Assembly (NCBI GenBank): GCA_030390025.1 | Contig: CM059431.1 | Location: 120,778,001 to 120,842,000, forward strand | Source: Squalus acanthias | Lineage: Eukaryota | Reading direction: 5' to 3' | DNA length: 64,000 bases | Shown here: in pieces, positions 7,623 to 64,000 of the stretch | Position numbering within the stretch: the stretch's first letter is position 1 | Layout: every line of letters begins with the position of its first letter | The notes under the pieces: generated by a model | What the model was told of the DNA's origin: nothing | Database searches by the model: none | What the model saw: only the letters and a program-made list of their open reading frames with translations | Translations under genes and position numbers: made by a program

Positions 7623-8190
7623 AACACAAAATAAGCCATTGAGTGACACAAACTGTATAGTCACAGGAATTGTAACATCCACCAGCTGAGTGGTTTTATT
7701 TTGCACATTAAATCCCAGCACACAATGTAAATCCAATTCACAGTTCTGATTTCAGTTAAATTAATCTGGGGATTGTTAAGAGTTTAGATGTAATGAAAAT
7801 AGAACAGTTAAACTCCTTCAAAACAAACTTTATCATAATAATTTAGAATGAAAAGGCATATATTAGGAGTAGATCGGTTATAAACAAACTGCTCGTCTAA
7901 AAATTTCAAAAAACAAAAGTTGTATTTGTACCTCTGCAAATATTACTACTTGTAAAATTGAAATATGTTGTACAAAAATAATTTATGAACTCCTTTTCAG
8001 TTGCTTCTGCCTAATTCCATTCCCTCTGCAGGCCACTGAAACCATTACTGTGCACTTGTGTTAAAACTGTGGTTTGATGGTTGGGAATCCAATGTACTTA
8101 TAAGCTGCACTCTTGCTGAATCTGCAGTTATCTCGAACATGTTTGGTGTTGAACACTGCAATACTACACAGTGCAAGTCACTAGCTGGTT

Positions 8191-11100
8191 AAAGAAATAC
8201 AAGAAAAACAAGGGTGTGGCGAGAATGAGGAACTTAAAGAAATACGAGAAAACCAAGGGTGTGGCGAGAATGAGGAACCTAAAGAAATTATTATTAGTAA
8301 AAAAACAGTACTAGCAAAATTAATGGGAATAAAAGTCGATAAATCCCAAGGACCGGATGACCTACATCCTAGGGTTTTGAAAGAGGTGGCCATTGGGATA
8401 CTGGACGCATTGGTTGTCATCTTCCAAAACTCTATAGATTCTGGAATGGTTCCTGCAGATTGGAGGATAGCAAATGTAATCCCGCTATTTAAGAAAGGAG
8501 GGAGAGAGAAAACGGGGAACTACAGAACTGTTAGCCTCACATCAGTAGTTGGGAAAATGCTGGAATCTATTATAAAGGATGCAATAACTGTGCACTTAGA
8601 AACTAATAGTAAGATTGGGCAGAGTCAACATGGATTTATGAAAGGGAAATCCTGTTTGACAAACCTATTGGAGTTCTTTGAGGATGTAACTAGTGGAGTA
8701 GACAAAGGGGAACCGGTAGATGTGGTGTATTTGGATTTTCAGAAGGCCTTCGATAAGGTCCCACACAAGAGGTTGGTGAACAAAATTAGGGCACATGGAA
8801 TTGGGGGTAATATACTAGCATGGATTGAGAATTGGTTAACAGACAGAAAACAAAGAGTAGGGATAAACGAGTCTTTTTCAGGATGGCAGGCTGTGACTAG
8901 TGGGGTACCGCAAGGATCGGTGCTTGGGCCCCAGCTATTCACAATCTATATCAATGATTTGGATGAAGGGACTAAATGTAACATTTCCAAATTTGCTGAT
9001 GATACAAAGCTAGGTGGCAGTGTCTGTTGTGAAGAGGATGTGAAGAGGCTTCAGGGGGATCTCGACAGGCTCCGTGAGTGGGCGAGAACATGGCAGATGG
9101 AATATAATGTGGATAAATGTGAAGTTATCCACTTTGGTAGAAAATACAGAAAGGCAGAGTATTTCCTAAATGGTGAAAGATTGGGGAATGCAGATGCTCA
9201 AAGGGACCTGGGTGTCCTTATACATGAGTCACTGAAAGTGAATGTGCAGGTGCAGCAAGCCATTAGGAAAGCAAATGGTATGCTGGCCTTCATTACAAGA
9301 GGATTTGAGTACAGGAGTAAAGAAGTCTTACTCCAATTATATAGGGCCTTGGTGAGACCACACCTGGAGTACTGTGTACAATTTTGGTCTCCTTACCTAA
9401 GGAAGGATATACTTGCCATAGAGGGAGTGCAACGAAGGTTCACGAGATTGATTCCTGGGATAGAAACATAGAAGATAGGAGCAGGAGTAGACCATTCGGC
9501 CCCTCGAGCCTGCTCCGCCATTCGATGAGATCATGGCTGATCATCCAAACTCATTACCCTGTACCTGTCTGCTCTCCATATCCCTTGATACCTTTAGCTT
9601 TAAGAAATATATCTAACTCATTCTTGAATATATTTAATGACTTCGCCTCAACTACCTTCTGTGGTAGAGAATTCCACAGGTTCACCACTCTCTGGGTGAA
9701 GAAATTCTTCCTCATTTCTGTCCTAAATGGCTTACCCGTTATCCTTAGATTATGACCCCTGGTTCTGGACTCTCCGACCATCGGGAACATTCTTCCTGCA
9801 TCTAGTTTGTCCAGACCTGTCAGAATTTTATATGTTTCGATGAGATCCCCTCTCATTCTTCTATACTCCAGCGAGTATAAGCCCAATCGACCCAATCTCT
9901 CCTCATATGTCATTCCTGCCATCCCAGGTATCAGCCTTGTGAATCTTCGCTGAACTCCTTCCATGGCAAAAACATCCTTCCTCAGATAAGGCAACCAAAA
10001 CTGCACACAGTACTCAAGGTGTGGTCTCACCAAGGCCCTGTACAACTGCAGCAGGACATCCCTGTTCCAATACTCAAACCCTTTCGTTATGAAGGCCAAC
10101 ATACCATTTGCCTTCTTCACCGCCTGCTGCACCTGCATGCTTACTTTCAGCGACTGGTGCACAAGGACACCCAGGTCTCGTTGCACTTCCCCTTCTCCCA
10201 ATCTATTGCCATTCAGATAATAGTCTGCCTTTCTGTTTTTGACACCAAAGTGGATAACCTCGCACTTATCCACGTTATATTGCATCTGCCATGCTTCTGC
10301 CCACTCACCCAACCTGTCCAAATCATCCTGGAGTTTCTCGGTATCCTCCTCGCAGCACACACTCCCACCCAGCTTTGTGTCATCTGCAAACTTGGAGATA
10401 TTACATTTAGTTCCCTTATCTAGATCATTAATGTATATTGTGAATAGCTGGGGTCCAAGGACCGATCCCTGCAGTACCCCACTAGTCACTGCTTGCCACT
10501 CGGAAAAAGACCCATTAATTCCTACTCTCTGCTTTCTGTCCGCCAACCAGTTCTCAACCCAAGTCAATACCTTGCCCCCAATCCCATGTGCCTTAACTTT
10601 ACCCGCTAATCTCTTATGCGGGACCTTATCGAAAGCCTTTTGAAAGTCCAAATACACCACATCTACTGGTTCTCCCTTATCTATTTTCCCAGTTACATCC
10701 TCAAAAAATTCCAGTGGATTAGTCAAGCACGATTTACCTTTTGTAAAACCATGTTGACTTTTTCCGATCCTGTCACTATTTTTCAAGTGCTCAGCTATTA
10801 CATCCTTTATAATGGACTCTAGCATTTTCCCACTACCGATGTCAGGCTTACCGGTCTATAATTCCCCGCTTTCTCTCTACCACCCTTTTTGAATAGTGGG
10901 GTAACATTAGCTACCCTCCAATCCATGGGTACAGTTCCAGATTCCATCGAATGTTGGAAGATGATCAGCAGGCGGGACTGTCGTATGAGAAGAGATTGAG
11001 GAAACTATGCTTGTATTCTCTTGAATTCAGAAGAATGAGAGGTTCTTCCCTTGGCTGGAAAGTCTAGAACCAGGGGCCACAGCCTCAGGATAAACAGTAG

Positions 11101-19696: not shown

Positions 19697-20733
19697 ATGG
19701 GTGCTCTAATTGTCATCCCCCTTGGCCTGCAGCATGACAGGGAGATGGAGCAGAGGCAGCAACGAAGAGGACAAGCTGCTCGCAGAGAAGGAGGGGGGGA
19801 AAGGCTCTCAACAGGAGGCATTACCCACCTAGGGTCTTCCGAGAGCAATTCTCTTACCTCAGCCTGAGCCAGGAGCAGTGTGTGAGGTGACTGTGCTTTA
19901 CGAAGGAGGTGCTCACAGAACTCTACTACCACTTGCAACCAGACCTGCAGCCTCACACCAGGGCAAGGACAGCGCTGCCAGTGGCTGTGAGGGCGACTGT
20001 AGCCCTGAATTTCTTTGCATCGGGATCCTTCCAGGCTGGAGCAGGCGACATCTGTAACATCTCCCAGTTCGCCGTCCACTGCTGCATAAGAGAGGTGACA
20101 GAAATTCTTTATGCCAGGAAAAGGGATTTCATTGTCTTCTCTCTGACCAGAGAGAAGCAGACAGAGCATGCACGTGGCTTTGCCAGGATAGCGGACTTCC
20201 TCATGGTGCAGGACACCATCGACTGCATGCACGTGGTTTTACTGGCACCGTATATAAAGGCTGAGATGTACCACAACCGCAAAGGTTACCACTCGCTGAA
20301 TGTACAGTTGGTGTGCGACCATGCTCAGGACATCATGATGGTGAATATCCAGTATCCTGGCAGCAGTCATGATGCTTTTATTCTGCACCAGTCCGCTGGT
20401 CCCTCAGTCTTTGAGCACCAAGACAAACCAGAGGGTGGCTACTGAGCAACAAGGGCTATCCCTTGACCACCTGGCTCATGACTCCCCTCCACAACCCAAC
20501 CACATGTGGGTAGCATGCTTACAACGAGAGCTGAGCTGCCACATGAAATGTCATAGAGCAGACCATTGGCATCCTTAAACAACGCTTCCGCTGCCTGGAC
20601 TGCTCTGGAGGAGCCCTACAGTACTCACCAGAGCGTGTGTCCTGATTAGTCGTGGTCTGCTGTATCCTCCACAACCTGGCTATCATGAGGGCACAGCCCT
20701 TGCCACCGGGGATACAGCCACCAGCTCAGGAGC

Positions 20734-29943: not shown

Positions 29944-31058
29944 TTATTGGAACCGTAGTCTGATGAGGACCACCCTTCCAGAAGGCCAATTGAGTGGCTA
30001 CCTCCTCCCTCACTTCAGTTCCTCCTCCTCCTCCTGCTCATCTTCCTCTTCCTCTCCCTCTTCCTCCTCCTGAGGTGGTCCAGCAATCCCTGGTGGCAAG
30101 CGCTGGGCCCTCATGATGGCCAAGTTGTGGAGCATGCAGCAGACCACGACGAAATGGGACACCCGCTCCGGCGAGTACTGGAGGGCTTGAGCACCCCGAT
30201 GGTCTGCTCGATGATGTTCCTGGTGGCAGCATGGCTCTCATTATATGAGTGCTGAGCAGGAGGGCTGGGGTTGTGGAGGGGAGTCATGAGCCAGATGGAG
30301 AGCAGATAGCCCTTGTCTCCGACCAGCCAGCTATGAGCTTGCTGTGGCGGCTGGAAGAGTGCTGGCAAACCGGTCTGGCACAGGATGAAGGCATCGTGGC
30401 TGCTGCCAGGATAGCAGGCATTCACATTGAGGTCGCACACCAACTGCACATTAAGTGAATGGTAGTCTTTGCATTTACAGAAGACCTCAGGATTGTTATG
30501 CGGTGCCCACAAAGCCATGTGGGTGCAATCAATGGCGCCCTGCACCATGAGGAATCCCGCTATCCTGGCAAAACCACATGCGCGTTTGTCCTGCTTCTCT
30601 CTGGTGATGGGGAAGGAAATGTAGTCGGTTCTCCTACTGTAGAGAGCCTCTGTGACCTCCCGGATGCAGCAATGGACGGCGAACTGCGAGATGTTCGCTA
30701 TATCTCCTGTTACAGACTAGAAGGAACCGCTGGCAAAGAAATTGAGGGTGACGGTGACATTGCCTGCCACTGAGAGAGCCGTGGTCGACCTGATCTGAGG
30801 CTCGAGGTGTGGTTGCAGGAGGTGGCAGAGATCGGTGACCACATCCTTGCTGAAGCGGAGCCGTCTAATGCACTGCACCTCGCTTAATTGAAGGTAGGGG
30901 AAGTGCTCTCGGAATACCCTAGCGGGGTAAGGCCTCCTGCTGAGAGCCCTGATGGCTCTCCTCCTCCCTCTGGCCACATCTTGCAATCTTTCTCGCTGCC
31001 TCCGCTCTCTCCGCCGTGTATCCTAGAGGACGAGGTCGATTGCCAGTACAGCCCCCAT
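29944..31058 (-). pseudogene. Harbinger DDE transposase pseudogene
   Basis: ORFs 30717-30986 and 30111-30548: RLRFSK, NFFASGSF, VQGAIDCTHM, YHSLNVQLVCD, PGSSHD, GDKGY, HAATRNIIEQTIGVLK. Confidence 0.9.
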
Positions 31059-36187: not shown

Positions 36188-38831
36188 CAGCTAAACTTCA
36201 CCAGTCATTCTTTGATCACATATCCAACAGAAACACCGCACAGTGGAGGAGACAAACAGAAAATGAATGGCATATTTAATACCCGTTCCAACATTTATCT
36301 CTGGGGCTGCCAAAAGCAAAAGGAGCAGAAGCCAAATCTTATGCTATAAATAATAAGACTGCTGAGCAATACATGTAAGTTTATCTAGTTGCATGTTTCT
36401 TGGGATAATCTTGGCCTTTTGGGAGACCATGACAGGGATTGTTCAGACTTGCAGTTCATTATAATCTTTTAGCTTCAGGATTTAATGGCCTAGCTGGAAC
36501 ATAAACACTAAAATTGTAGGAAATTTAATAATTATAATAACATTACTTGGAGTGTTTAAATTAACCCATATCCTACCAAATATGTTTTTCCACAATGAAT
36601 GATTTCCATAGGGTGAAAAGTTTTGGCGCTAGGTAACTAAGGAGTAATTCTCAGATGTTAGTGAGTATTTTCAGTATGGAGCTCTTTAAGAACAAAAGAA
36701 AAATGCAGGGATTGGGCGGGGAAGACAAGAAATTCTATTTTGCTTTAAATGAGAAACAAAGGACCATATTGTAGGACACCACTAAAGCTGCAGACAATAA
36801 ATGGGAAGATCAGGTAAATGGGGAAGTAATGAATTCATGACACCAAGCTTAGGTTTTCAAAGCTTGAAGATTGTAGGAGGACAGAGTTAGTGGGAGGTAA
36901 GGAGTTCTGCATTTCTGGGGTACTGACTGGCTGCAACATTTAATAAATAGCGAACCTTCACACAAAATGTTGTTTAGTGGAGTGACTGCAACACTGACTA
37001 GAATGGAAAACAGCTTTTTTTAAACACAGAAAAATGTTATAAGGCACTATAGTTTCTCTTCAACATTTCTAATAAAATGGTATCCAGATGTAGAAAGTAT
37101 AAATAAGTGCTGTTATACTGTATTGGACTTTTTTAAAATTTAAGTCACAACATCCCTTCATTTCCTCACTGCTTAACTCTTAATTCTTATCTTTTCAACT
37201 AAGATAAAATTCTCAATGTTTAAAAGCAGGATACACCTGCTTCTTGTTAATGGACACAACTGTAAGTTCTTAAGAAGGAGTCGCTGTGAAGTGAAAGTCT
37301 CCAGCACAGACAGCGGCCACATGGCCCACATTTCCACTTCATCCAATCTCTTTGTACTATATTTATAAAATTCTTTGTGCTTGGTGTAATTACAAACAAA
37401 TTGTTCGGGAACAGCTGAACAGAGTTACTGAGTGAACTAAGACCATCAGCCCCAATGACGTTTTAAAAAATACATTCTACTGTTTGTTTGAAAATGATTA
37501 AATCAGTCACTGACTCTAATCAAATCATTTGGTATTAAGCAACGTGATGGACCATTATAAGTGATAGATATGAAACAACGTGAGCTTTTCTTTTGCTGCT
37601 GAAAACGTACATGTACACCTTTAAAGTATAAGAGTACAGCTTTGAGACATTGTTGCCTGGCATCTTTTTTTTCTCTCTTGCATATTTCCCCTAAAGCTGA
37701 TGATTTCTTGCTGGGGTATAGTTCTTCAGATGTTATTCGCCCTCTGGTGTCTTGCCCAGATGGCCATTATTTATGTAGAAGCCTTCACAGCTGCATGTAA
37801 GAAGACTTTTTAACTGGAGGAGTTTCACAGCCAAACTTGGTCTTCATGCAACGTCCATAAATTCACATTCCCAGTAGGAGTTTCTAGGCAATGGTCAGAT
37901 GCAATTCAGGCACCTCTACTGCCACCTGGCTAACCTTAGCTAACTCAACACAGACCAAGGATCAAACTTGGGACCATCTTAGCCTGTGCATTCAGTTACT
38001 CAATGTATAACCCTGCTAAACCATTAATGGAACCCAGAATATTGTTTACATTATTAAACAGTAGGCAGTTCTGAGTAATGTAAAAATTAACATAACAAAT
38101 GGTAATCTTTGATTTATTTATAATAAGGAAAACAATACCAAAATACAGCACAGTCCAAATGCTCCTGTCTACCCTTGTTTCTTTAAGACACCACTTCCTG
38201 TGGTTACTGTTTTCATGTCCTTCTCCTTACATTTCATTTTGGTTTAACGTATCTGTTTGTTTATACTTTAGTTTCCTGATTCATGCCCTTTTTTAATGTA
38301 ATATCTTCTCTCTTTCTAATAAACTCTACTTTACTAGTTCTCCAGGATTATTTTTAGCTCTTCAACTTTTATTTTTCTTTACTTTGTTTCTTTCTGCTCT
38401 TTCCTTTGATGTGCTCTTTGATCTTTCTGAGATTAGTAACATCTCCTAAACCTCTCTTGTGGTTTCCATGCTGTGCATAGATAGCAGGCTTCATTACATA
38501 AAATATAGGTTTCTTTACTTTTCCTTCTATTAGCAATCGACTTCTCTCCTATTTCTTTCTGAATTACAACTCACTTCTCTCTTTACTATGTATTAAGAAT
38601 TTCTTCAGTTGCTTTTTCTGGAGATTTACCCCGAGTGTTCTAAGCTTTTTTCTGTTTTCTTCTTTCTGAGCTTGCTGGCTTTCAGTTACCCTCACCTTCC
38701 TATTTTACTAACACACTAGTATTAAGGCGGATATTCTGTGAGTGCTTGCATCAATGTTCCTCTGTGGAACCTGCCTCTGAGCTCTCCAGCCATTTGTCCT
38801 GGGAAATATTTATCCCTGAACCAACATCACT

Positions 38832-39483
38832 AATGTGAGAAGTCGCACAACACCAGGTTATAGTCCAACAGCTTTATTTGAAATCACAAGCTTTCGGAGC
38901 GCTGCTCCTTCATCAGGTGAAGTGAAGAGATGCATATAGGCACAGCATGTATAGTCAGAGAACACTGCCAGATGATTACAGTTAATCTTTCTAACTGCCC
39001 TTTATCACACCTCGGCAGAGAGATAATCACGGCAATCAAAGGTGTGGATGGTGTCCAAACAGGTCAGTCAGGAAAACATTACATCAAAGACAATGAGGTG
39101 GGGTCACAAGGGGTCAATTGTGGCAGATGCTGGGGTCTGTGTGGAAAACAAAAAACAATTGACCCCTTGTGACCCCACCTCATTGTCTTTGATGTAATGT
39201 TTTCCTGACTGACCTGTTTGGACACCATCCACACCGTTGATTGCCGTGATTATCTCTCTGCCGAGGTGTGATAAAGGGCAGTTAGAAAGATTAACTGTAA
39301 TCATCTGGCAGTGTTCTCTGACTATATATGCTGTGCCTATATGCATCTCTTCACTTCACCTGACGAAGGAGCAGCGCTCCGAAAGCTTGTGATTTCAAAT
39401 AAAGCTGTTGGACTATAACCTGGTGTTGTGCGACTTCTCACATTTGTCCACCCCAGTCCAACACCGGCATCTCCACATCATGG
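38832..39483. mobile_element. Penelope-like element remnant: inverted pseudo-LTR pair plus 3' tail extension
   Basis: 290-bp arms 38832-39121 and 39155-39444 (about 3 mismatches), 33-bp spacer, ~40-bp tail, flanking direct repeat CAACATC(A/G)CTAA. Confidence 0.8.
39356..39392 (+). ncRNA. Minimal hammerhead-ribozyme-like motif (mirror copy on - at 38884-38920)
   Basis: TCAC-CTGACGA-AGGAGC(AGC)GCTCC-GAAA-GCTT-GTGA: core CUGANGA/GAAA, stems I and II, palindromic AAGCTT in place of stem III. Confidence 0.6.
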
Positions 39484-52907: not shown

Positions 52908-53925
52908 TGTAAGGGGTTTTGTGTCGTGCTTGTATCGCAGACGGTGCTGGTACGGGGTTAGGCCTTTGTTGCCTAATACTATTGCTTGCTCTGGTCTCTG
53001 TCCAGCCTTGTTGCAATAAGCACCTGTGAGTGGTTCGACCCACTCGCCCTTACGGTTCTAACACTGGACTCAGGTGCGAGAGCAGTAATGCAGAGAAAAA
53101 CTCAAATAGACTCGGCTGAATAGTACGAAATGGAAATCTTTATTGCATAGCGTCCAAGATCATGAAGTACATGTCATAGGCGCAAATTAACGAGAGTACA
53201 AGTATACATACATTCATAAAGCTTGGTCTATGGTAATGAAGAACACACGGCACATCGTAAAAAGGGGAACACATTATACTTTATCCTTAATAAAACCACC
53301 CTCCCTTATCAATACCTACACTACATCTAGATTTGTAGGATCGGGAAACATGCTCACCACTCGTGATACTGTAGAATTCGCAATATATCGCGATTTGATT
53401 AATGAGGAGAAAACACAAGTTTCGTTCAAACAGCTTTTATTTCAGCAGAATGCTGGCAGGTTTAAATTGGACACAAGCAGCCTGTAAAATGGCCACCGCA
53501 CCTCGTGACAGAACATTCTAGACTTTTCAACAGGCAGACAAGATGGCGTTCCAATAAACATTTGTGCAAGATCGATTAAGATGCAGCACAGTGAAGATAA
53601 TACACGAGACATTATGGGTTTGCAGTATAAACATAGATACTGGAATCGGTCTCCCAGGTACAAAGGAAAGCCATTGTACCGAGTAATCAAGGGCCCATCC
53701 AAAGGACATTAATATGTAAAATCCCAACGACTCTACGATGAGAGAGCCGTTAGCAGGTAGTTATACAGGACACTTGGAAGCCCCAAACCCCTCCAGGGAG
53801 AACACCGACCGATTTAACAATGGGAGAAATATTAACAGGTACTCAGACATTTACGAGTAGCCCCGAAACCCATTAAGAACGGAGATCACCCATACAAGAC
53901 ATTTGGGCGCCAAACCCTAAACAAA

Positions 53926-53999
53926 AGAATGGACATTATAGTTGGGCGGGAAACGGAAGATTTTTGCACTATAATTGCAGGCTCCAAACCGTCCATTCT
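53926..53999. promoter_or_regulatory. Candidate bidirectional core promoter at LTR centre
   Basis: GTCCATTCT on - (53926-34) and + (53991-99); ATTATAGT / ACTATAAT inverted pair (53935-42, 53968-75) around GGCGGGAAA (E2F-like) and CGGAAG (ETS-like). Confidence 0.5.
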
Positions 54000-54207
54000 C
54001 TCTCTTGCTCTTGCATTCGCTCGCTTGCTCCTGTGTTTTATCCGGTCGATTCGTAACCTCGTGGCTGCTCCTGTGTACTCGTAGTTGGGCTTCTGCTTGC
54101 CCGTTGCCTCTTCTGAAAAGACTGTTGAACTTTCTGATCCGTTCAGATCTACCTCGTGTCGCGTAACGAAGACCTATGTTGGTAACTGGCAGCGGAACCA
54201 AAGGCCC

Positions 54208-54236
54208 GAGATGAGATGAGATGAGATGAGATGAGA
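54208..54236. repeat. (GAGAT)n microsatellite within LTR
   Basis: Five-plus GAGAT units. Confidence 0.9.
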
Positions 54237-54782
54237 GGAGAAGAGAGGAAGACCATATCCATCGCCACGGTCAGTAAATCCCGACCGCGCCTGTAGGTCG
54301 ATCAGCCAAGTTTTCCTCGCCAGGAAGATTTCTATTTTGAACTTTTAACAAAACATATTGCATCGACGATAACGGGACTGTGTCTAAGGAGACTGGTACG
54401 TGAAACCAACCAACAGAGATCTTCATCACAGCAGACGGTCCAGCCTACTAGCCGGAGCAGCAGAAGCAAGTAAACAAGTGGGACCAGGAGATCTCCTGAC
54501 CGACACGTGGGTGCTGCGGTGAAAAACATCCGATCAGCTATTCGGAATTTCTCCGAGTTATCACGAGTGGTGAGCATGAGTCTCGAGATCCTACGAAGCT
54601 AGTTTAGGATAGATATTGATAGGGGAGGGTTTAAGGATTAAGGATATTTGTAATGTGTGCCCCTATTTACTTTGTGCCGTTCGTTCCTCGTTTCCCTAAG
54701 ATCGACTATATAACTGTTTGTAAGATTGTACTGTCATTAATCTGTGCTTATGACATGTATTTCATAATTTTAAGTATCATGC

Positions 54783-54788
54783 AATAAA
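54783..54788 (+). terminator. LTR polyadenylation signal (mirror copy on - at 53139-53144)
   Basis: AATAAA ~250 bp before LTR end, conserved in both arms and in the solo LTR. Confidence 0.7.
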
Positions 54789-55043
54789 GATTTTCCATTT
54801 CGTACCTTTCAAACCAAGTCTACATGAGTTTTATCTCCATTACTGCTCTCGCATCTAAGTCCAGTGTCTAGAACCGTAAGGGAGAGTGATTCGAACCACT
54901 CACAGGTGTGTCTAGTGTTCCCAGACTGGCTGGAGACCAGAACAGGCAACCAGGCCTAGACCCGCACTGACATACAGGCTGCACAGAGCCGCGTGAATCT
55001 CACAGGCTGCGAGACACGCAGGGTCAGGAATCCCTTACAGAAA

Positions 55044-56854
55044 ATGGCGACCGCGGCAGGACACTGGCAGCGAGAGGGTAGTGTGTTAGATTTTGGAATG
55101 ACTGTACGAAATGTTATGCAGGAAAAGATAGCGGATTATGTGTTTGGAAAGGTTAATCTAACCAAGAAATGGATAAGTGAATTGTTAGCGGATAAGAGCC
55201 CACTAGAGGCAGCTGAAAGGTGGACAGATAGTAAAGAACATAGAAAGACACTTGAGAAAGCAGTCTGGCTTATGTGCTACAAAAGGCAGGTTCAGATTTC
55301 AAACCAGACCATTACAGCGCTAGTAGCTCGAATCAGTCATTTAGAGGGAGAAATGGAGGAGAAGGTTTCTGGAGGGGAGGTGCTCATTAAGAATTTAAAT
55401 GAGTTACACCAGGAAAGCCAGGAAGTCTCCAGTCACCTTAAAACAAGGATAGAGTATCTCGAGTGCCAGGTCACTGAGGCAAAATTGAATGAGAGCAGGT
55501 TAAAGGAAAGATGTAACCGCCAAGCTGCCCAGATAAGAACTCAAGAAGAGAGCTTAATGGGGGTTAGGTCGGCATATAAGTTGGCCCTTGAGGATAAGTT
55601 TCAGGGAGCCGACCATAGCGCCTGCCAAAGGGAGATAGAGAACCTCAAAAAGGCCGTGAACATTGCGAACGGCATGGTGTGCCTTATCAATCCGTCGGCG
55701 CACCAGCCGCTAGTAAATGAGAGATTTAGAAAATCCCCACCAAGTAAAGCAGAAGAAGTAGTAGCCACTGCGCCCTCCGCGCCACCCAGCTATTCAGAAA
55801 CCTGGGTTAGGGAGGAAGCAATGGAAGAAACAAAAGAGCCCATTGAAAAGGAAGTAGAAAAGGGATCGCTGTATCCAGTAACGGGTATTAAAAGGGGCCC
55901 AAGCAGAAACGGTGGGAAGAACCGGGGGATCTCCTCGGACAGCTGGTGTTGCCTCACAGTTCACATCAGCTGAGAGCTATGATAAATCACGTACGGAAGC
56001 TGACCGAGATAGACGACCCTTCCGTACATTTCAGAGAAGTTGAGCAAGCCGCAGCCATTAACGGCTGCGATGATGGGGAGACAGCAAAAATGCTGCTGTT
56101 CTCATTAGACAGCTCGGTCCTTCAGTGTCTCTCAGGCGAGAGCAAGAGGGGAAACAAGAGTTATGAGGAATTAAAGAATGAGGTCCTAGAAGTGTTGGGG
56201 GCGAACGACGAAGGTCCGTTTGCTAGAGTGGGACAGACAGTGCAGATGGAGGGAGAACCCCCGAAGGTTTTTGCCGACAGGCTGTGGCCAGTATATGAGC
56301 GCAGCTGTCTAGGTGCGCCCGAGCGCGAAGATGTGGAAGGCGCCGCTTTAACTCATTGGCTTAGGTGCATAATAGCCAACAGTTTACCAGCCGTTAGAGA
56401 GCAGGCAAAAGCATGGTTTGATCCCAATGACCTCAACCTTACGGAAGAGTCGGTCTTGAATCGACTCACGTTAGGTTATCGTAATATAAGGGGTATGACG
56501 ACACGTCCCTTTAAGGGAAGAGTACATGAGGTACGACCCGCAGCCCCGTATCAAAGAGAGTGGCATCAGGAGGGTAATCGCGCCCCACAGGCAAGTAATG
56601 CTTGTTACGGGTGTGGGAAGACAGGGCACTGGCGCAAGCATTGCAGGAACCCTTGGAAGGATTCCAAGGATAAAAATCCCGCGGTCCGAGCCCAGGCGCC
56701 TGTCCCGGCTAAGGAAGCCAAGACACCCACCCCTCCCGACGACCTCGAAGCAGTGTTAGGAGCCATGCGCAAGCTGGTCTTGAATGCGCGTGGACAGGTG
56801 GCGGTCGCAACCGGCCCCGTAGGTGCCGCAGGACCGTCTAATAATGCCCCATGA
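55044..56854 (+). CDS. gag: Gag (split by one -1 frameshift near 55915)
   Basis: ORFs 54993-55973 (coiled-coil-like, PSAPPSY) and 55946-56854 (CA-like, CYGCGKTGHWRKHC knuckle at 56603-56644); true start may be ATG 55044, 55098 or 55116. Confidence 0.85.
55045..55062 (+). promoter_or_regulatory. Primer binding site, tRNA-Arg(UCG)
   Basis: TGGCGACCGCGGCAGGAC is the reverse complement of GTCCTGCCGCGGTCGCCA, which I recall as the 3' 18 nt of vertebrate tRNA-Arg-TCG. Confidence 0.85.
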
Positions 56855-59800
56855 CTAGAACCAGCACAGCCCGTCTACCTGTGTCCGCTTAGCTATGATG
56901 CGTGGAGGCGACCTGTGGTGGAGATGGAGGTAGAGAAACAGAAGGGCAGTTATTTGTTGGACACGGGAGCTTCTTGCACCATAATCCATACAGATGACCC
57001 TTTTGACTCGCCGCTATCTACCAAGGTCCCATTCACGTTGGCAGGGTTCACAGGAAAAGAACAGGCTGGCACGTTTTCCCTTCCGCTATCCATTCGTTTA
57101 GGAACACTTCGCCTTAAGTGGAAGTGTATACTGATGGCATGGCAAAAGGGGGGTGGAAGAGGTATTCTCGGGTCCGATCTCCTAGCGGGACACGGGATCC
57201 TCGTGGACCTCAGAAATCACTGTCTCTGGGGGGCTAAAGGTGAAAAAGGCGAGGTAATAGTGATTCCGGGGGAGGAAGAAACAGGGGTCCTGTGTACCGT
57301 ACAGCCATCCGGAGGCTACGACCTCAGGCTTATGGTCGCAGATGTCCCAACGGACATGCAAACGTACGTGTCAGATAATATGCACGCGTTTGCAACCCAC
57401 AAGCACGATTGTGGGAGAGTGGTCGGGTTTGAGGTCAGCGTAGATGGGGACCCCATGACCCGACCCCAAAAGCAGTATAACTTCCCCAAAGAAGCAGAAC
57501 CCGATATGGAGACAGCAATGTCTTCCTTGGTGCAGCAGGGCGTGTTAAGGCCGATAGCCACACACGTGAACTCCCCATTATGGCCGGTTAGGAAGCCGGA
57601 TGATTCGTGGAGAGCCACGGTGGACTACAGAGTCCTTAACAGTAACATTCCCGCCTGCGCGCCCACAGTAGCAGCAGTTGCTGACCTAATAGGGAGCATC
57701 CCAGCGTCCGCGACCACGTTCACGGTGCTGGATATCTCGAACGGTTTTTGGTCCATCCCGCTGCGGCGAGAGGACCAGTACAAGTTTGCCTTTACTTTCA
57801 AAGGGCAACAGTACACGTGGAACTGTCTGCCACAGGGTTTCCACAATAGCCCCAGTATTTTTCATCAGTGTATGGCAGGAAGTTTAAGGGAGTTTAGTCA
57901 GCCCAATCAGATAGTACAGTATGTGGATGATTTGCTCCTATTTACGGACTCAAGGGAGGAGCACGGACCACTGCTGGGCGAGTTATTGGAGCTGTTAGCG
58001 AGAAAGGGTTTTAAAATAAACCCTAAGAAAGCACGTATCGGTCAGCGGGAAGTAAAATTCCTGGGACTGACCATACGCGCTGGGGAAAGAGCCATAGACA
58101 AAGCAAGGAGGGAGTCGGTGCAAGAATTACCGATTCCCAACAACGTAAGGGGTGTGAGGTCCTTCTTGGGACTGACCGGTTACTGCAGGGATTTTATCGA
58201 AGATTATGCGGCCACAGCGGCGCCGCTCCTCCGACTCCTCCATAAGGGGGTGGAGTGGTTTTGGGACGAGGGCTGCCAAGCAGCCTTCGAGAAGTTAAAA
58301 AGGGATCTGCAGACCGCGCCAGCCTTAGGGGCCATAGATGGGGGGAAGGAGTTTTTCCTGGAGGTAGCTGCCAGCGGAGACAGCTTAAGCGCCGTGCTGC
58401 TCCAAGAGCGTCACGGCAAGCTGAGGCCGGTTGTCTATTCATCCAGGGTATTAACGGATGTGGAGAGAAGTTTCTCCAATTGCGAAAGGCACCTTTTAGC
58501 CACGCATTGGGCTGTGAAAAGATCAGCGATCTTCACAGGGCTCTCTCCCATCACTCTCCTCACACATCACACACCAACTAAGATGCTTCTGGATGGGAGG
58601 ATTAAAGACGGGACCGTAAGCAGCGCACGCATTGCGCGTTGGACCCTTCTTCTCTCCCAGTTGGATCTTAGAGTAAAAGGTCTTTGCGAGCCCAGGCTTG
58701 CGGCCAATTTGGTATACCCCGGTACAGCCCACCGGTGTTCGGTGGAAGGGGTGTGGGACGTCAACATAGGTTTACGGGCCGGGATACATCCCACTGGGCG
58801 CGAGATTTATGTTGATGGGTCTAGCACAGTGTCTGCTGGCGAGCGACTCACAGGGTGTGGAGTTTATGACCCTGCGGCAGACCTTGCCCTGGCGATCAAG
58901 CTCCCTAGCACCATGAGCGCGCAGCAGGCTGAGCTGTCTGCCGTGGTGTACGTTGTGACCCACCCAGACATTTTCCCAACCCCATACACGATTTGCTCGG
59001 ACAGTATGTTCACCTGCAATTCGTGTACGGAATACCTGGCCATTTGGTCCCGCCGCGGATACACCTCCGCGGACGGGCGACCTTTAACGGTGAAGCCCTT
59101 GCTGGAAAAGATCTTAGCAGCAGCAGTAGGGGAGGAAGGAGAGATTTTCATCCATAAGGTGAAAGCTCACTCCTCCACAGAGCCCCGTGGGGAGGGCAAC
59201 CGGCAGGCGGATGCGCTAGCCAGGGAGGGTGCCCGCGACGGCACTTTCTGGAACCCCTACAGGACCGGACCCATAGCAGCGGTCCGAGGCGGGGACGGGA
59301 ATACCGGGAACACCAGGGTAGCATTGCCCCTAGACCTCAAAACCGTCCAAGCCCAGGATCCCGCCCTAAAAGCAGTCCTAAAAACGATTGCTGAGGGGAG
59401 GCAGGTAGAAGGTCCGTACAGTACGGCAACCCTCTCAGTTAAGGAAGGCATGCTGTTCCGCGAGGAGCAGTGGGTTGTGCCGCAGCAGCACAGGAGGGAA
59501 TTCCTCCAGTTGGCTCACGAGGGACCAGGGGCAGGGCACCCCGGGCCCGAGGTTACCTGGCAACGGGTAGAGCAAGCGGGATGGTGGCCAGGGCTCAGGG
59601 AACAAGTCCGCGAGTTCTGTGCAAACTGTCTTGTGTGCGCCGCAAACAACCCAGACCCCCAGAAAAGGAAGGTGCCCATGGGACACGTAAGAAGGGTAGA
59701 GGGACCATGGCAGTCGATACAGATCGACTATATAGGACCCCTGCCCACCACCCAGGGAGGTTATAAGTACTGCCTCGTCCTGGTGGATGTGTTTTCCAAG

Positions 59801-61378
59801 TGGGTGGAAGCCTTCCCTTGTCGAACAGCTACAGCACTGGGTACAGCAAAAATCTTGGTCCGGGAAGTGTTCTCGCGGTGGGGACTTCCCCGTTTTGTGG
59901 AGTCAGACCAAGGGAGTCATTTCACCGGCCAGGTGATGCAGAACACCCTCATGCTTTTGGGCATTGAAGGGAAGTGGCACGTAGCACACAATCCCCAGTC
60001 ATCCGGGATTGTTGAACGTATGAACCGGACCCTGAAGGAGAAATTGAGGAAAGAGACTAGGAACTCGCCCCAAAAATGGGCGGAAGTTCTGCCTTTAGTC
60101 CTCATGGGGGTCCGGGCCAGTCAGTCAAAAAGTACGGGGTACTCCCCGCACGAGGTAATGACTGGGAGGCTCATGCGAACCCCCACCCATGTGCTAGCGC
60201 CGGTGCTCACTGAGGGTCAGCTCCAAGAGATAAGCAGGGACAAGTTCGCCCAGACTCTCTTGGAGCGCCTGAAGCAAGTTTATGAGCAGGCGGCTGGGAA
60301 CATGGGAAGGCAGCATCAGGGCAATCGCTTGTTGCTGGAACCCCGCAAAACGCGGGAGTGGGAAGTAGGAGACCAGGTCATGGTCAGAAACTACGCCAGA
60401 GTAGGGAGTCTGGAACCACTGTATATGGGACCCTACAACATTGTAGACAAGGCGAGTCCCATGGTTTACGCCGTAAAAGTACCTCGGCGCACTAAGTGGT
60501 TCCACATAAACCAATGCAAACTGTACCAGCCGGGTGCGCAGGGGAAAACTACAGGGGTAAATCCCGCCAATGGGAAAGCACAGCCCCAGGTAGGACCACA
60601 AGGCACACAGGCAGGCATAGCAGCTTGCATCAGGGGAAGGGACATCCCGGACGATCATGCAGCGTTTTTCTGGAGTTGGGGGTTAGATGAGGAAGAACCC
60701 AGGGTACCCTGGTCAGATGAGGATAGTGCAGATGAGCATAGTGATGATGACGGGTGGTTCCTGAGGAACGGTCTGGAGGGAATGGGGCCTATAGGTAGAG
60801 ACCCACACAGAGTGGACACACAAGCTGCAGGTCCCGAGGACAGGAGGGAGGAGCTAGAGGAGGCAGGGCCAGCCGCTATAGGAGCACAGAGAGTACCGAT
60901 GTGGCTCCCAGAGATGTGGCCGCCCGCTTTGAACGTCCAGTCCTCAGGGGAGGCAGAGATCACGAGTGAAGGGCCGCCTGCTGGGCCGAGCAGGGCGGAG
61001 CCACGAACTGCCAGCCCCGAGGTTAGGGAGGCGGAGTCAGCGGAGGCGGAGCCGGCGACTGTGATGGAACCCCAGGTCATCCCGTTGGAGGTCTCGGAAC
61101 CCGGTCCGTCCGTCACGGAACCCCCGCCCATAGCAACTCCCCGTAGGTCAAGTAGAGAACCCCAGCCCAGGAGGATGTGGTCATGTCCCCAGACTGCCCC
61201 AAGGCGTAGACTTCAGGTTAAGATAACCCGGGTACAGACCGGCCACATCGCAGCAGTAACAGGCTGCGGCAGATCAGAGGGAAGGGTCAGCGCAGCAACA
61301 GGCTGCGGCAGATCAGAGGGAAGGGTCAGTGCCCTCCCACCGTCGGGAAGAGCTCGCAGCAGCCTTCTCAGAATTTAA
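56855..61378 (+). CDS. pol: Pro-Pol: protease, RT, tether, RNase H, integrase with GPY/F module, C-terminal extension
   Basis: LLDTGA (56960), LPQGFHNSP, YVDD (57920), YVDGS..SAQQAEL..SDS..GNRQAD, H-H-C-C, IDYIG/SDQG/VERMNRTLK, MGPY; open and in frame with gag from 56855. Confidence 0.97.
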   Translation, partial: LEPAQPVYLCPLSYDAWRRPVVEMEVEKQKGSYLLDTGASCTIIHTDDPFDSPLSTKVPFTLAGFTGKEQAGTFSLPLSIRLGTLRLKWKCILMAWQKGGGRGILGSDLLAGHGILVDLRNHCLWGAKGEKGEVIVIPGEEETGVLCTVQPSGGYDLRLMVADVPTDMQTYVSDNMHAFATHKHDCGRVVGFEVSVDGDPMTRPQKQYNFPKEAEPDMETAMSSLVQQGVLRPIATHVNSPLWPVRKPDDSWRATVDYRVLNSNIPACAPTVAAVADLIGSIPASATTFTVLDISNGFWSIPLRREDQYKFAFTFKGQQYTWNCLPQGFHNSPSIFHQCMAGSLREFSQPNQIVQYVDDLLLFTDSREEHGPLLGELLELLARKGFKINPKKARIGQREVKFLGLTIRAGERAIDKARRESVQELPIPNNVRGVRSFLGLTGYCRDFIEDYAATAAPLLRLLHKGVEWFWDEGCQAAFEKLKRDLQTAPALGAIDGGKEFFLEVAASGDSLSAVLLQERHGKLRPVVYSSRVLTDVERSFSNCERHLLATHWAVKRSAIFTGLSPITLLTHHTPTKMLLDGRIKDGTVSSARIARWTLLLSQLDLRVKGLCEPRLAANLVYPGTAHRCSVEGVWDVNIGLRAGIHPTGREIYVDGSSTVSAGERLTGCGVYDPAADLALAIKLPSTMSAQQAELSAVVYVVTHPDIFPTPYTICSDSMFTCNSCTEYLAIWSRRGYTSADGRPLTVKPLLEKILAAAVGEEGEIFIHKVKAHSSTEPRGEGNRQADALAREGARDGTFWNPYRTGPIAAVRGGDGNTGNTRVALPLDLKTVQAQDPALKAVLKTIAEGRQVEGPYSTATLSVKEGMLFREEQWVVPQQHRREFLQLAHEGPGAGHPGPEVTWQRVEQAGWWPGLREQVREFCANCLVCAANNPDPQKRKVPMGHVRRVEGPWQSIQIDYIGPLPTTQGGYKYCLVLVDVFSKWVEAFPCRTATALGTAKILVREVFSRWGLPRFVESDQGSHFTGQVMQNTLMLLGIEGKWHVAHNPQSSGIVERMNRTLKEKLRKETRNSPQKWAEVLPLVLMGVRASQSKSTGYSPHEVMTGRLMRTPTHVLAPVLTEGQLQEISRDKFAQTLLERLKQVYEQAAGNMGRQHQGNRLLLEPRKTREWEVGDQVMVRNYARVGSLEPLYMGPYNIVDKASPMVYAVKVPRRTKWFHINQCKLYQPGAQGKTTGVNPANGKAQPQVGPQGTQAGIAACIRGRDIPDDHAAFFWSWGLDEEEPRVPWSDEDSADEHSDDDGWFLRNGLEGMGPIGRDPHRVDTQAAGPEDRREELEEAGPAAIGAQRVPMWLPEMWPPALNVQSSGEAEITSEGPPAGPSRAEPRTASPEVREAESAEAEPATVMEPQVIPLEVSEPGPSVTEPPPIATPRRSSREPQPRRMWSCPQTAPRRRLQVKITRVQTGHIAAVTGCGRSEGRVSAATGCGRSEGRVSALPPSGRARSSLLRI

Positions 61379-61690
61379 AGGGGCCGCCCTGAGAACGGGC
61401 GGCACTGTAAAGTTATAGTTCTAAGTTTTAAGTTTATAAGTAACAAGGTTAAGTTTTAAGTTTATAGTTCAAGGTTAAGGTTGTAATTTTAATAAGGCTA
61501 AGTTTGTAGTGTTTTTAACAGAAAACGATAAATGATGGGAGTTTTAAGGTTAGGTTTAGAGGAAGTTTATTCAGCAAACGTTGAAGCTTACGTGAGGCGA
61601 GGTCAGGGGACCCGCTCACCCTTCACAAGAGCCAGAGACTCTTGCGAGGCTGGCTACCTCATTCTATCTGATCACAGGAACCAAGGAAGG

Positions 61691-64000
61691 ATGGAACGAA
61701 TTCTAGTATTGCTCGTGGCAATCGGATGTGGATTGGCCTATCGAGGCCACACCAAGGATGTCGTGGTGTTTGGATGTTCCGGGGACACGGCCCCCATCGC
61801 GGTGGACGGGACCGGAAGACGGAAGGCAGAGGGGACCAGCACCTATTTCCACAAGGGAAGGTGGCCAGGATGGCTGGGAACGAACTCAACGGAGTATTCC
61901 AGCACATCGGGGTTTGCCTACCAAGAGACTTCTTTACTGTGCCCCAAAGTAAGGATCATCGCACCCAGGATCAGCGTCACCGTCGGCAAACGGATTTGTT
62001 TGACTTGTAGTGGGAAGGTCCCATTGAGCCGATGGTGGTGGCTGCGAAAGCTGAGCAAAACTATGAGAAACTCTTCGGTCGAGTGGGAACGACTGGGTAA
62101 TAATACCCATCGGACAATTACGGGGACAGACGGACAAGTGAAAGTCTGTTGGGACAAATGGTGGGAACCGGATGAGGGGATTTATGTATGTATGTGGGGG
62201 TCAAAGTACGTTTGCCCCAAAGGCATCTCCATATTTTTTATTAATCAATGGCAGGATAACGGACAGGGGATGAGGTGGGATGCGAGCACCAGGGGGTGCG
62301 GAGCCCCATTCTCCCCGATCCCAGTAAATGCCACTGAACTCATTATGCGCCCACGCAAAGCCCCGCCCACGATTCCGGTGGTTCTAGCTGAGGAAGAAGG
62401 GTGCCCTAAAACTAGTAAGGGACCCGGGAATGGTTTGGTACTGGTCCCCACAGACCAGATACTCTTTCAGGGGGTACATTACGCGGTGGCCTCGGTGATT
62501 TTAAATCTCACTGAGGTACGGTTACCAGAGTGGTGCCCCAAAAAGACGGAACAGTTGTATCAGGTCCTGTTGACCAAGATGTTCAGACAATTTTACGAGT
62601 TTGATTTTGCAGAAATTGATAAGACAAGTTTGTACACCGCACCGCAGGAAGTTTTGGATCAAGTAGGGAGGCAAAGAAGGGGTTTGGTGAACGATGCGTT
62701 CACTGCTTTTAACACAGGGACATCTGTGGTCAACGCTCTAGACAGTGTGGAGCTGCAGACCCAGATTAATGGTTTAAAAACACAGTTAAAAGACATTCTA
62801 ACAGATGAGAATAAAGTGGTAGGGTCAGGTCTACACGAGGACCAAGCCATGACTCTCCATTTAAAGGAAATTATAGCAGAGCTGGAGAAACATGCGCGTA
62901 CGGTAAATGCCCTGATCAGGGAAGATCGGAATGCATCCGATCAAGCTGCGCAGAACGAGGTGTGCGTGCTTTACGGGGCGTGGTTACTGGGCGAGGGCCG
63001 CAGTAATTTGGAGGATTTAAAACAAGGTTTGGTTCCGTCCTGGATAAGTAACAAACACCTACGGGCGCTCCACCCTTTTCAGAACGCATTAAGTCCGTGC
63101 CAGCTCAGGCTAGCTTCAGAAGCTTACCCAGTCCCCGTGGACTGCGGACGATCAAACCATACTATTATGGGAATAGTATTACGCATGCCGGTTTTGGGCG
63201 ACACAGCAAAGCCCGCCCCGGTATATCGGGTAGAGAACATTGGTGTCATTCAGGGGGGAGCCCACGTTCGTTATGCAGCGGTTCCACCTTACGTCATCCG
63301 CTGGGAGCAAACGATGACAGGTACAGATCTCTCTGGTTGTCGTGGCAGGGGAGCACACATAATACTGTGCCCCCAGCACTTGAATGCCTTTTTAACACCA
63401 CAGTGCGGGTTCAGAACGGCTGGCGCCAAGTCCATGAATTGCACCATGGAGGCAATGGCACAAGATCATGTGCCTCCGCAGGTAGCATACATCGGGGGTG
63501 GAACATATTGTGTTACCACTGCAGCGCAACACTACCAGCATGGAAACCGTAGCCGGTGTCCGGTGAGTGACAGCAGTTTCTGTTTTAAACCCAGGGCTGA
63601 AGTTCAAGTAGCACAACAGCGAATTATCCCAATCCCTGAACCATCCACTGTTCATCTCACAGTAAAAGAGAATTTCACCGACTTGCAGCGATTTGTCGCG
63701 CATTTTGGATACCTCATTCCCCCTCTCCCTGAACACTTAACCAAACTTCTGAAAGCCGTCGCGGTATCACAGAAACATTTTTATACATTAGAGCAGAAAA
63801 CTGTCGAAATAGGAACAGACATTCTGGACATAGTAGTTCCACCGTGGTGGAATCTGTTCACTAATATTGAAGTGCCTTCATGGATCAGAATAGCCTCCCA
63901 CATTTTAGTCGTATGTCAAGTGTTTATCGTAGTGTACCTATTGGTCATACATTGTAAAAGAGACAAACGCCTCACCAAGCATGAAAACACGGGAGAGTGG
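61691..64000 (+). CDS. env: Env, F-type class I fusion glycoprotein (at least 770 aa, runs off window)
   Basis: Own translation, no stop: signal peptide MERILVLLVAIGCGLA, NxS/T sites, furin RQRR (62669-80), fusion peptide GLVNDAFTAFNTGTSVVNAL, heptad region, Cys-rich region, TM ILVVCQVFIVVYLLVIHC (63902-55), basic tail. Confidence 0.93.
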   Translation, partial: MERILVLLVAIGCGLAYRGHTKDVVVFGCSGDTAPIAVDGTGRRKAEGTSTYFHKGRWPGWLGTNSTEYSSTSGFAYQETSLLCPKVRIIAPRISVTVGKRICLTCSGKVPLSRWWWLRKLSKTMRNSSVEWERLGNNTHRTITGTDGQVKVCWDKWWEPDEGIYVCMWGSKYVCPKGISIFFINQWQDNGQGMRWDASTRGCGAPFSPIPVNATELIMRPRKAPPTIPVVLAEEEGCPKTSKGPGNGLVLVPTDQILFQGVHYAVASVILNLTEVRLPEWCPKKTEQLYQVLLTKMFRQFYEFDFAEIDKTSLYTAPQEVLDQVGRQRRGLVNDAFTAFNTGTSVVNALDSVELQTQINGLKTQLKDILTDENKVVGSGLHEDQAMTLHLKEIIAELEKHARTVNALIREDRNASDQAAQNEVCVLYGAWLLGEGRSNLEDLKQGLVPSWISNKHLRALHPFQNALSPCQLRLASEAYPVPVDCGRSNHTIMGIVLRMPVLGDTAKPAPVYRVENIGVIQGGAHVRYAAVPPYVIRWEQTMTGTDLSGCRGRGAHIILCPQHLNAFLTPQCGFRTAGAKSMNCTMEAMAQDHVPPQVAYIGGGTYCVTTAAQHYQHGNRSRCPVSDSSFCFKPRAEVQVAQQRIIPIPEPSTVHLTVKENFTDLQRFVAHFGYLIPPLPEHLTKLLKAVAVSQKHFYTLEQKTVEIGTDILDIVVPPWWNLFTNIEVPSWIRIASHILVVCQVFIVVYLLVIHCKRDKRLTKHENTGEW

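Follow-up and report, generated by a model that had tools for sequence, protein, structure and literature searches.

The 64,000-nucleotide (nt) stretch of Squalus acanthias DNA analysed here (assembly GCA_030390025.1, contig CM059431.1, positions 120,778,001 to 120,842,000; hereafter the window) ends inside a provirus whose envelope protein (Env) is securely predicted, on the grounds of structural modelling, to adopt the fold of paramyxovirus-type fusion (F) proteins over residues ~238-755. As judged from sequence profiles, the family of this Env is a bridge from the Envs of walleye dermal sarcoma virus (WDSV) as well as snakehead retrovirus (SnRV) to, more weakly, those of foamy viruses. The element, with the gene order LTR-PBS-gag-(TGA)-pol-env (LTR, long terminal repeat; PBS, primer-binding site), very probably belongs to a deep-branching lineage of classical retroviruses (class III or SnRV-like, in the 'clade Huo' sense) that forms a large multicopy family in its cartilaginous-fish host. 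An initial annotation, made from the letters alone, had proposed a young provirus related to lokiretroviruses (Loki) with an intact Env of F-protein type. The env gene and the parts of its product are located as follows (HR, heptad repeat; Ig, immunoglobulin; ORF, open reading frame; pLDDT, predicted local distance difference test).

61691-64000, plus strand: env ORF, 770 codons, stop-free, running to the window edge
61691..61741, plus strand: Env signal peptide, predicted by eye, with AG acceptor-like sites just 5'
61928..62215, plus strand: probable Ig-like domain (Env residues 80-175), from several weak lines
62402..62680, plus strand: F2-like part of the F core, from Cys238 and ending in RQRR (structure alignment and sequence)
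62681..63022, plus strand: putative fusion peptide and HRA/HRC helices (residues 331-444; model and heptads)
63098..63646, plus strand: Cys-rich beta domains of the F fold (residues 470-652; pLDDT mostly 70-95)
63722..63949, plus strand: HRB heptad helix (678-714) and transmembrane helix (734-753; model and heptads)

Translation of 61691-64000 confirms the stop-free frame of 770 codons that had been claimed. Each of the remaining five frames is interrupted by 23-49 stops, and from base composition an open stretch this long would be expected with a probability of ~1e-17. The frame is already open from 61532, and the cytoplasmic tail is clipped by the window end; the skate homolog P0005 has 16 residues beyond the position matching the end of the window Env. 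The 53 open codons at 61532-61690 come before the ATG of the signal peptide; each ATG has an AG acceptor-like site ahead of it, two in all. The furin site RQRR occupies Env residues 327-330 (62669-62680) and exactly 440 residues remain in the window after it, in agreement with the annotated post-furin subunit of at least 440 amino acids (aa). The heptads, Cys-rich stretch and late transmembrane helix of the annotation were likewise recovered. Hydrophobicity at heptad positions a and d, in the best register, is 0.82 for residues 678-714 against a background of 0.41, and a moderate 0.59 for residues 345-420 against 0.39; nine Cys lie within residues 470-631, and the single transmembrane peak starts at residue 734. 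The absence of a gamma-type transmembrane signature was also correctly noted, as CX6CC was not found in the window Env sequence and no such Pfam family is listed. As expected of class Ib fusogens, the predicted Env has an F core formed by both subunits, a furin site with a putative fusion peptide behind it, HRA and HRB, Cys-rich domains between them and a transmembrane helix.

An AlphaFold2 model of Env, built from a 36-row alignment, reaches high pLDDT across much of 240-300 and 420-650. When this model was compared with the PDB by Foldseek, the best match was human parainfluenza virus 3 F (E 1.2e-10), and every row listed was a paramyxo- or pneumovirus F. VIA-align ranked Newcastle disease virus F first (Z 10.3, root-mean-square deviation (rmsd) 20.8, 350 aligned), with human metapneumovirus F (Z 8.1, rmsd 6.0, 285 aligned) and foamy Env (Z 8.1, rmsd 12.0, 290 aligned) among its matches. 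The first match of the language-model features in the ESM Atlas was Fusion_gly (0.93, 205 features in common). The F-protein type given by the initial annotation is borne out by these structure- and feature-based comparisons; sequence searches found no F match. Several points weigh against the F-type assignment. The mean pLDDT of the Env model is 60.9 and the putative fusion peptide is merely mildly hydrophobic (mean 0.68). Pfam detected no sequence-level F match, PF00523 included, in the window Env and 36 aligned members, and PDB searches with the window Env by phmmer and by profile returned no F similarity. Paramyxo- and pneumovirus F and foamy Env (PDB 8RM0/8RM1), as described in the accessible part of PMC11468914, share with the window Env a three-domain class Ib fold with both subunits in the core, at 8-16% identity in the structural alignments. 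Foamy Env differs from it by a long leader and an internal receptor-binding domain (RBD), and paramyxovirus F by having no N-terminal module. Furin would cut the modelled Env after residue 330, and membrane fusion, by analogy with paramyxovirus F and foamy Env, would proceed through insertion of the fusion peptide and formation of an HRA/HRB six-helix bundle.

The nearest Env relatives (59-75% identity) come from skate and sawshark and the more distant ones from other sharks and frogs (8 of the 10 relatives looked up were named). A search of 1.84 billion representatives returned 50 matches, and a search of the viral contig collection with the window Env found no Env relative. Structure matches in BFVD included the Envs of WEHV-1 (WEHV, walleye epidermal hyperplasia virus; E 9e-14) and WDSV (E 6e-11), and also feline foamy Env. 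At the sequence level, the family profile was compared with the 259 ORFs of 52 virus records: WDSV Env came out on top (34.8 bits, E 7.8e-11), followed by SnRV Env (20.0 bits) and then foamy Envs (up to 17.9 bits). No gamma, beta or delta Env exceeded 5.1 bits, and the best non-Env control among 156 other proteins reached 2.5 bits. With hhalign, the family aligned colinearly to WDSV (probability 96.6, E 5.6e-10, 444 columns) and to SnRV (probability 90.5, E 1.4e-6). A 10-row core profile enlarged with WDSV and SnRV, which match it by construction, placed 16 of 16 foamy Envs above all other ORFs, the thinnest margin being 5.9 versus 5.3 bits. These links are detected by profiles only, as pairwise BLAST of the window Env against SnRV Env is not significant (E 0.056). 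In WDSV and WEHV (Epsilonretrovirus) the core is colinear with that of the window Env from a Cys-Pro motif to the transmembrane helix, whereas the N-terminal and cytoplasmic Env regions do not align and Pol falls in a different clade; SnRV likewise has a homologous Env core. Because the family profile finds the Envs of both WDSV and SnRV, an F-type fusogen is probably in use in no fewer than two exogenous orthoretroviruses.

F-like Envs have been reported for foamy viruses (PMC11468914; PMC12583693), errantiviruses (bioRxiv 2023.10.26.564294) and Loki (PMC7947760). The accessible part of PMC9967133 describes the Env of the walleye viruses as 'distinct' and as a recent acquisition and assigns it no fold, and a survey of anamniote Envs covers, in its accessible part, gamma- and beta-type Env (bioRxiv 2021.11.23.469661). 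Our literature search, which did not extend to subscription journals, found no paper giving WDSV or SnRV Env an F fold, and PMC12690878, PMC13709493 and PMC10435555, searched by term, had nothing further to offer here; provisionally, the link between WDSV, SnRV and foamy Envs appears to be new to the literature. The family is also found in repeated copies elsewhere: 16 near-identical genes occur in the frog Mantella aurantiaca (P0056-P0069), most of them full length at 677 aa, which points to a recent expansion. In four gene models (P0006, P0007, P0014, P0043), family fragments are fused to Niban, zinc-finger, cadherin and F-box genes; these are probably annotation artefacts of intronic proviruses.

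The placement of the element itself is based on Pol. Pol relatives were taken from 120 listed matches of 296; by their reverse transcriptase (RT) motifs, four were labelled as Loki proxies and one as SnRV. Reference viruses came from the viral contig collection, in which SnRV, WDSV, foamy viruses, murine leukemia virus (MLV), feline leukemia virus (FeLV), reticuloendotheliosis virus (REV) and koala retrovirus (KoRV) were labelled by motif identity with Dataset S2 of PMC7947760, while the WEHV, beta and delta labels are inferred. Three trees were built: a quick one of 75 rows, an RT tree of 57 rows (35 matches, 21 references and the window), and a tree of RT plus the RNase H-like tether that was reduced to 37 rows by dropping 21 long or redundant ones. 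In all three the window RT groups with coelacanth and frog Pols (95; 97/97; 96/97), forming with them a 12-row clade in the 57-row tree (97/97), and the split from Loki leaves it among the classical retroviruses (99; 99/99; 100/100). The approximately unbiased (AU) test rejected a union of this clade with Loki (p 0.018 and 0.008), Gypsy (p 0.007) and foamy viruses (six mammalian foamy RTs; p 0.036), and did not reject one with SnRV (p 0.26) or with endogenous retrovirus (ERV) L (p 0.06). Env and this Pol clade are also linked in a frog gene model (P0072), which comprises a clade Pol and an Env N-terminus 48% identical to that of relative P0037.

Other traits are shared with SnRV, namely a similar Arg-type PBS, the stop-codon readthrough layout, a coiled-coil Gag with one knuckle and RT motifs; inspection by eye shows the window RT to agree with the SnRV row of Dataset S2 and to have none of the Loki motifs in the part of that dataset seen (PMC7947760). 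SnRV-related ERVs are known in vertebrates (PMC12193657), from all major lineages (PMC6001957) including the elephant shark (CmiERV lineage I; PMC4422223). SnRV nevertheless differs from the element in reading through UAG instead of UGA, in its longer Env (~1130 aa versus 770+) and in having a Pol insert between RNase H and integrase; the two RTs are 43% identical and show no supported sister relation. Since no starred node unites the window lineage with SnRV or ERV-L, the 'clade Huo' label rests on exclusion and shared features, a point that weighs against it. So do the integrase bit scores, which outside the window lineage are highest against Loki proxies (186-204 for three of the four and 107 for the fourth, compared to 132 for SnRV), and the tether scores, at ~100 for two of the four proxies compared to 57 for SnRV. 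The integrase tree, which included no CGIN1 row, did not resolve. The trees, moreover, were built under LG+G4 from 265-410 columns with 3-4 motif-labelled Loki proxies and had no rows for alpharetroviruses, lentiviruses, Odin or foamy-like sequences of fish.

A rather unlikely alternative is that the element represents a lineage of its own at the base of Retroviridae, as yet unnamed and outside SnRV and ERV-L, which would be the closest classical relative of Loki. In the Gypsy-rooted tree the window lineage does lie in a basal polytomy of classical retroviruses, its integrase and tether have stayed Loki-like, and its RT is less similar to SnRV (43%) than to the nearest lineage members (50-53%). 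On the other hand, high BLAST scores to Loki may come from slow evolution, the AU test leaves room for a grouping with SnRV or ERV-L, and the record of SnRV-related ERVs cited above extends to the elephant shark. A foamy-like ERV of cartilaginous fish is very improbable, even though the F fold of foamy Env (PMC11468914) was matched by both structure and profile and such ERVs exist in these hosts, judging by the title of a paper cited in the same source. It is contradicted by the AU test against the mammalian foamy viruses, by a Gag with a CCHC knuckle and a pol in frame behind its stop, and by a short Env signal peptide instead of a long leader with a first transmembrane helix (TM1). To our knowledge, foamy viruses have neither a CCHC knuckle in Gag nor an in-frame pol behind a stop.

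That the element is a lokiretrovirus, as initially annotated, is extremely improbable. Such a membership would be new for chondrichthyans, as the accessible part of Wang and Han (PMC7947760) gives Loki in 0/6 chondrichthyan genomes. From the same source, Loki shares with the element a gag-pol-env order between LTRs, a tether plus RNase H, an F-type Env with a furin site and a similar integrase, and relatives of the element are auto-named 'NYNRIN-like'. The dual RNase H (tether and RNase H) is common to all retroviruses and does not discriminate, and the integrase similarity to the Loki proxies is high. The RT lies inside the classical retroviruses (100/100) in a phylogeny with Loki proxies, foamy, epsilon and Gypsy references and carries motifs unlike every Loki row seen in Dataset S2. 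The Loki Envs seen there also begin their F core, by eye, ~25-35 residues from the N-terminus and have a hydrophobic fusion peptide, compared to a core start at residue 238 in the window Env, which thus has ~215 extra N-terminal residues; no smc gene occurs in the part of the element seen. The initial annotation consequently loses its Loki assignment to the position of the RT within classical retroviruses, while its F-like Env is retained through the structure match.

A stretch of ~215 residues, not remarked on in the initial annotation, separates the signal peptide from the F core, and Env residues 80-175 within it are likely to have an Ig-like fold. They contain the pattern Cys106...Trp...Asp-x-Gly-x-Tyr-x-Cys167. 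Pfam gave a sub-threshold Ig_3 match to the window Env head (E 0.45) and Ig families in its relatives at E 0.0085-0.045, below the curated thresholds, and a PDB sequence search with the window Env returned JAM-A weakly (E 1.5). All ten best family matches of the head in the ESM Atlas (0.79-0.80) belong to one clan, VIA-align of the full Env model gave Z 5-6 to obscurin and titin Ig domains, and relative P0016 carries the UniRef name 'Ig-like domain-containing'. The isolated region gives a less favourable picture that weighs against the assignment: its model has a pLDDT of 48, its matches to V domains are at E ~0.01 (best Foldseek E 0.0095), and its best Z (6.2) is to bacterial pilin Ig-like folds. 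Furthermore, the A3 profile and P0037 matched no Ig chain in the PDB, and Pfam called no Ig domain in SnRV and WDSV Env. By eye, the N-terminus of SnRV env (record L001, 6131-6550) shows Cys...Trp...Tyr-x-Cys-Met-Trp patterns that resemble the window Ig-like region.

Gamma-type Env is known to carry an IgV-like module at its N-terminus, with a proline-rich linker behind it, and in it the Ig-like domain is the RBD (bioRxiv 2024.03.17.585361). There the module is mounted on a CX6CC fusion core, as opposed to the F-type core of the window Env. Because of this analogy, the Ig-like head and proline-rich linker may, as a weaker inference, constitute a built-in attachment module that binds receptors and occupies an exchangeable slot. 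The position at which the F core begins differs between proteins: Cys238 in the window Env, 150-189 in several relatives from sharks and frogs, and 22-23 in two more. The slot before it varies among relatives (P0037, P0072, P0022, P0051, P0016, P0015, P0040), being Cys-free and V-set-like, Cys-bearing and Ig-like, Cys-rich and non-matching, or empty. It is unlikely, though well short of negligible, that the N-terminal region is not Ig or not an attachment module, and instead forms another beta-sandwich or a shielding or spacer element. All Ig scores of the head lie under curated thresholds, the confidence of the region's model is low, and relatives P0040 and P0050 have no N-terminal region at all; against this stand the convergence of independent weak methods on the Ig clan, the Cys-to-Cys pattern of the head and the name of P0016.

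For the origin of retroviral Env, Wang and Han left four scenarios standing (PMC7947760), and foamy Env has been set apart from orthoretroviral Env (PMC11468914). We tentatively raise the possibility that F-type (class Ib) Env is ancestral in retroviruses, with gamma and beta Envs as later replacements, and that in the window lineage the N-terminal slot of the F core repeatedly took up Ig receptor-binding heads. If true, this ancestral Env would have persisted in Loki and foamy viruses, in SnRV and the walleye epsilonretroviruses, and in the shark, coelacanth and frog lineage, scenario 1 or 3 of the four would be favoured, and the generalisation that orthoretroviral Envs show no similarity to foamy Env would be overturned. 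The question can now be tested by an Env tree, because the present family bridges WDSV, SnRV and foamy Envs. The window locus, itself one defective copy of a multicopy family, adds this Env link and an intact pol for formal placement.

The remaining parts of the provirus are the following.

53483..55039, plus strand: 5' LTR, its 3' end firm and its start a best guess from TGTAA...TTACA inverted ends
55045..55062, plus strand: PBS of tRNA-Arg type, 5 nt past the LTR end, resembling the SnRV site
55044..55973, plus strand: gag 5' piece with a coiled coil; start codon uncertain, the first ATG overlapping the PBS
55892..56854, plus strand: gag 3' piece in another frame, with a capsid-like region (from its position), ending in TGA
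56855..61378, plus strand: pol, one 1507-codon frame, in frame past the gag TGA (context TGA-CTA)

The 5' LTR contains a TATA-like sequence at 54707 and AATAAA at 54783, and contigs from 4/4 runs cover the provirus from 53500 on. The 3' LTR lies outside the window, which ends inside env, so that there is no LTR pair. Among 39 metagenome loci matching the PBS-complementary tRNA 3' end and a T-loop motif, 27 received a tRNA call, of which 24 were Arg, and 12 received none; these are environmental tRNAs and not the host's. Scans for tRNAs and Rfam families found neither in the region. Reportedly, tRNA-Arg was described as the SnRV primer by Hart in 1996. In the window element, tRNA-Arg would prime reverse transcription, UGA readthrough at the gag stop is expected from the sequence to yield Pol, and a spliced mRNA would give Env. 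According to the accessible part of a review (PMC13517186), SnRV reads through UAG, and a number of aquatic retroviruses through UGA.

The coiled coil of the gag 5' piece weakly matches that of SnRV Gag (pairwise E 1e-4), and the 3' piece has one CCHC knuckle at 56603-56644, beyond which the capsid region showed nothing significant against SnRV Gag. As the break in the gag frame, which the initial annotation did not mention, is not common to the copies in contigs of 4/4 runs, it is a lesion of the window copy or an assembly error. A programmed frameshift was ruled out, with no canonical slippery heptamer seen by eye and the break not shared by copies. Since gag is frame-broken, the copy as assembled makes no Gag-Pol and is not replication-competent; it could still express Env, which does not depend on gag. 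Pol was rightly annotated as intact: its single frame keeps the catalytic motifs and encodes, in order, protease, RT (YVDD), a degenerate RNase H tether, RNase H, integrase and a ~280-aa low-complexity tail. Read against the known motifs, the first RNase H has its catalytic carboxylates replaced, as in a tether, and the second keeps them. The C-terminal ~280 residues (60527-61378) are acidic and proline-rich, have no Pfam match and contain a short duplicated stretch near 61250-61335. In SnRV (L001), the pol region between RNase H and integrase carries paired His-x-Thr/Ser motifs, as does the env tail of record L076; we take these to be 2H phosphoesterase-like, and the window Pol has no such insert.

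The element is one copy of a large multicopy family, as 57-76% of its sampled words are contained in 20 runs from nine studies under six organism labels. Contigs show many variants, 0-3% different over long pieces, with copies ~98-99% alike. The observed-to-expected CpG ratio is 0.71 across the provirus and 0.36 in bases 1-52000, as the earlier remark on abundant CpG had implied. The age attached to that remark stands in a relative sense, given the retained CpG and the similar copies, and is weakened by slow shark clocks, 3.3% LTR divergence corresponding to 75 million years under an assumed rate (PMC4422223).

Directly upstream, one further feature abuts the provirus.

52911..53428, minus strand: inverted partial copy of a related LTR, 76.5% identical (390/510 aligned bases)

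This copy has a CpG ratio of 0.89 and the same TTACA end and stands back to back with the provirus; probably, one family member was inserted into or beside another here. Its differences from the LTR show no A-to-G excess (14/120 differences). The flank 1-52000 is repeat-rich, with no evident host gene. By eye, we presume 1309-2550 and 8185-9471, for example, to be RT fragments of CR1-like long interspersed nuclear elements, and 19891-20445 and 30111-30716, among others, to be Harbinger/PIF-like nuclease fragments. Finally, a 293-nt inverted repeat, 99% complementary and with a 33-nt spacer, lies at 38829-39447.

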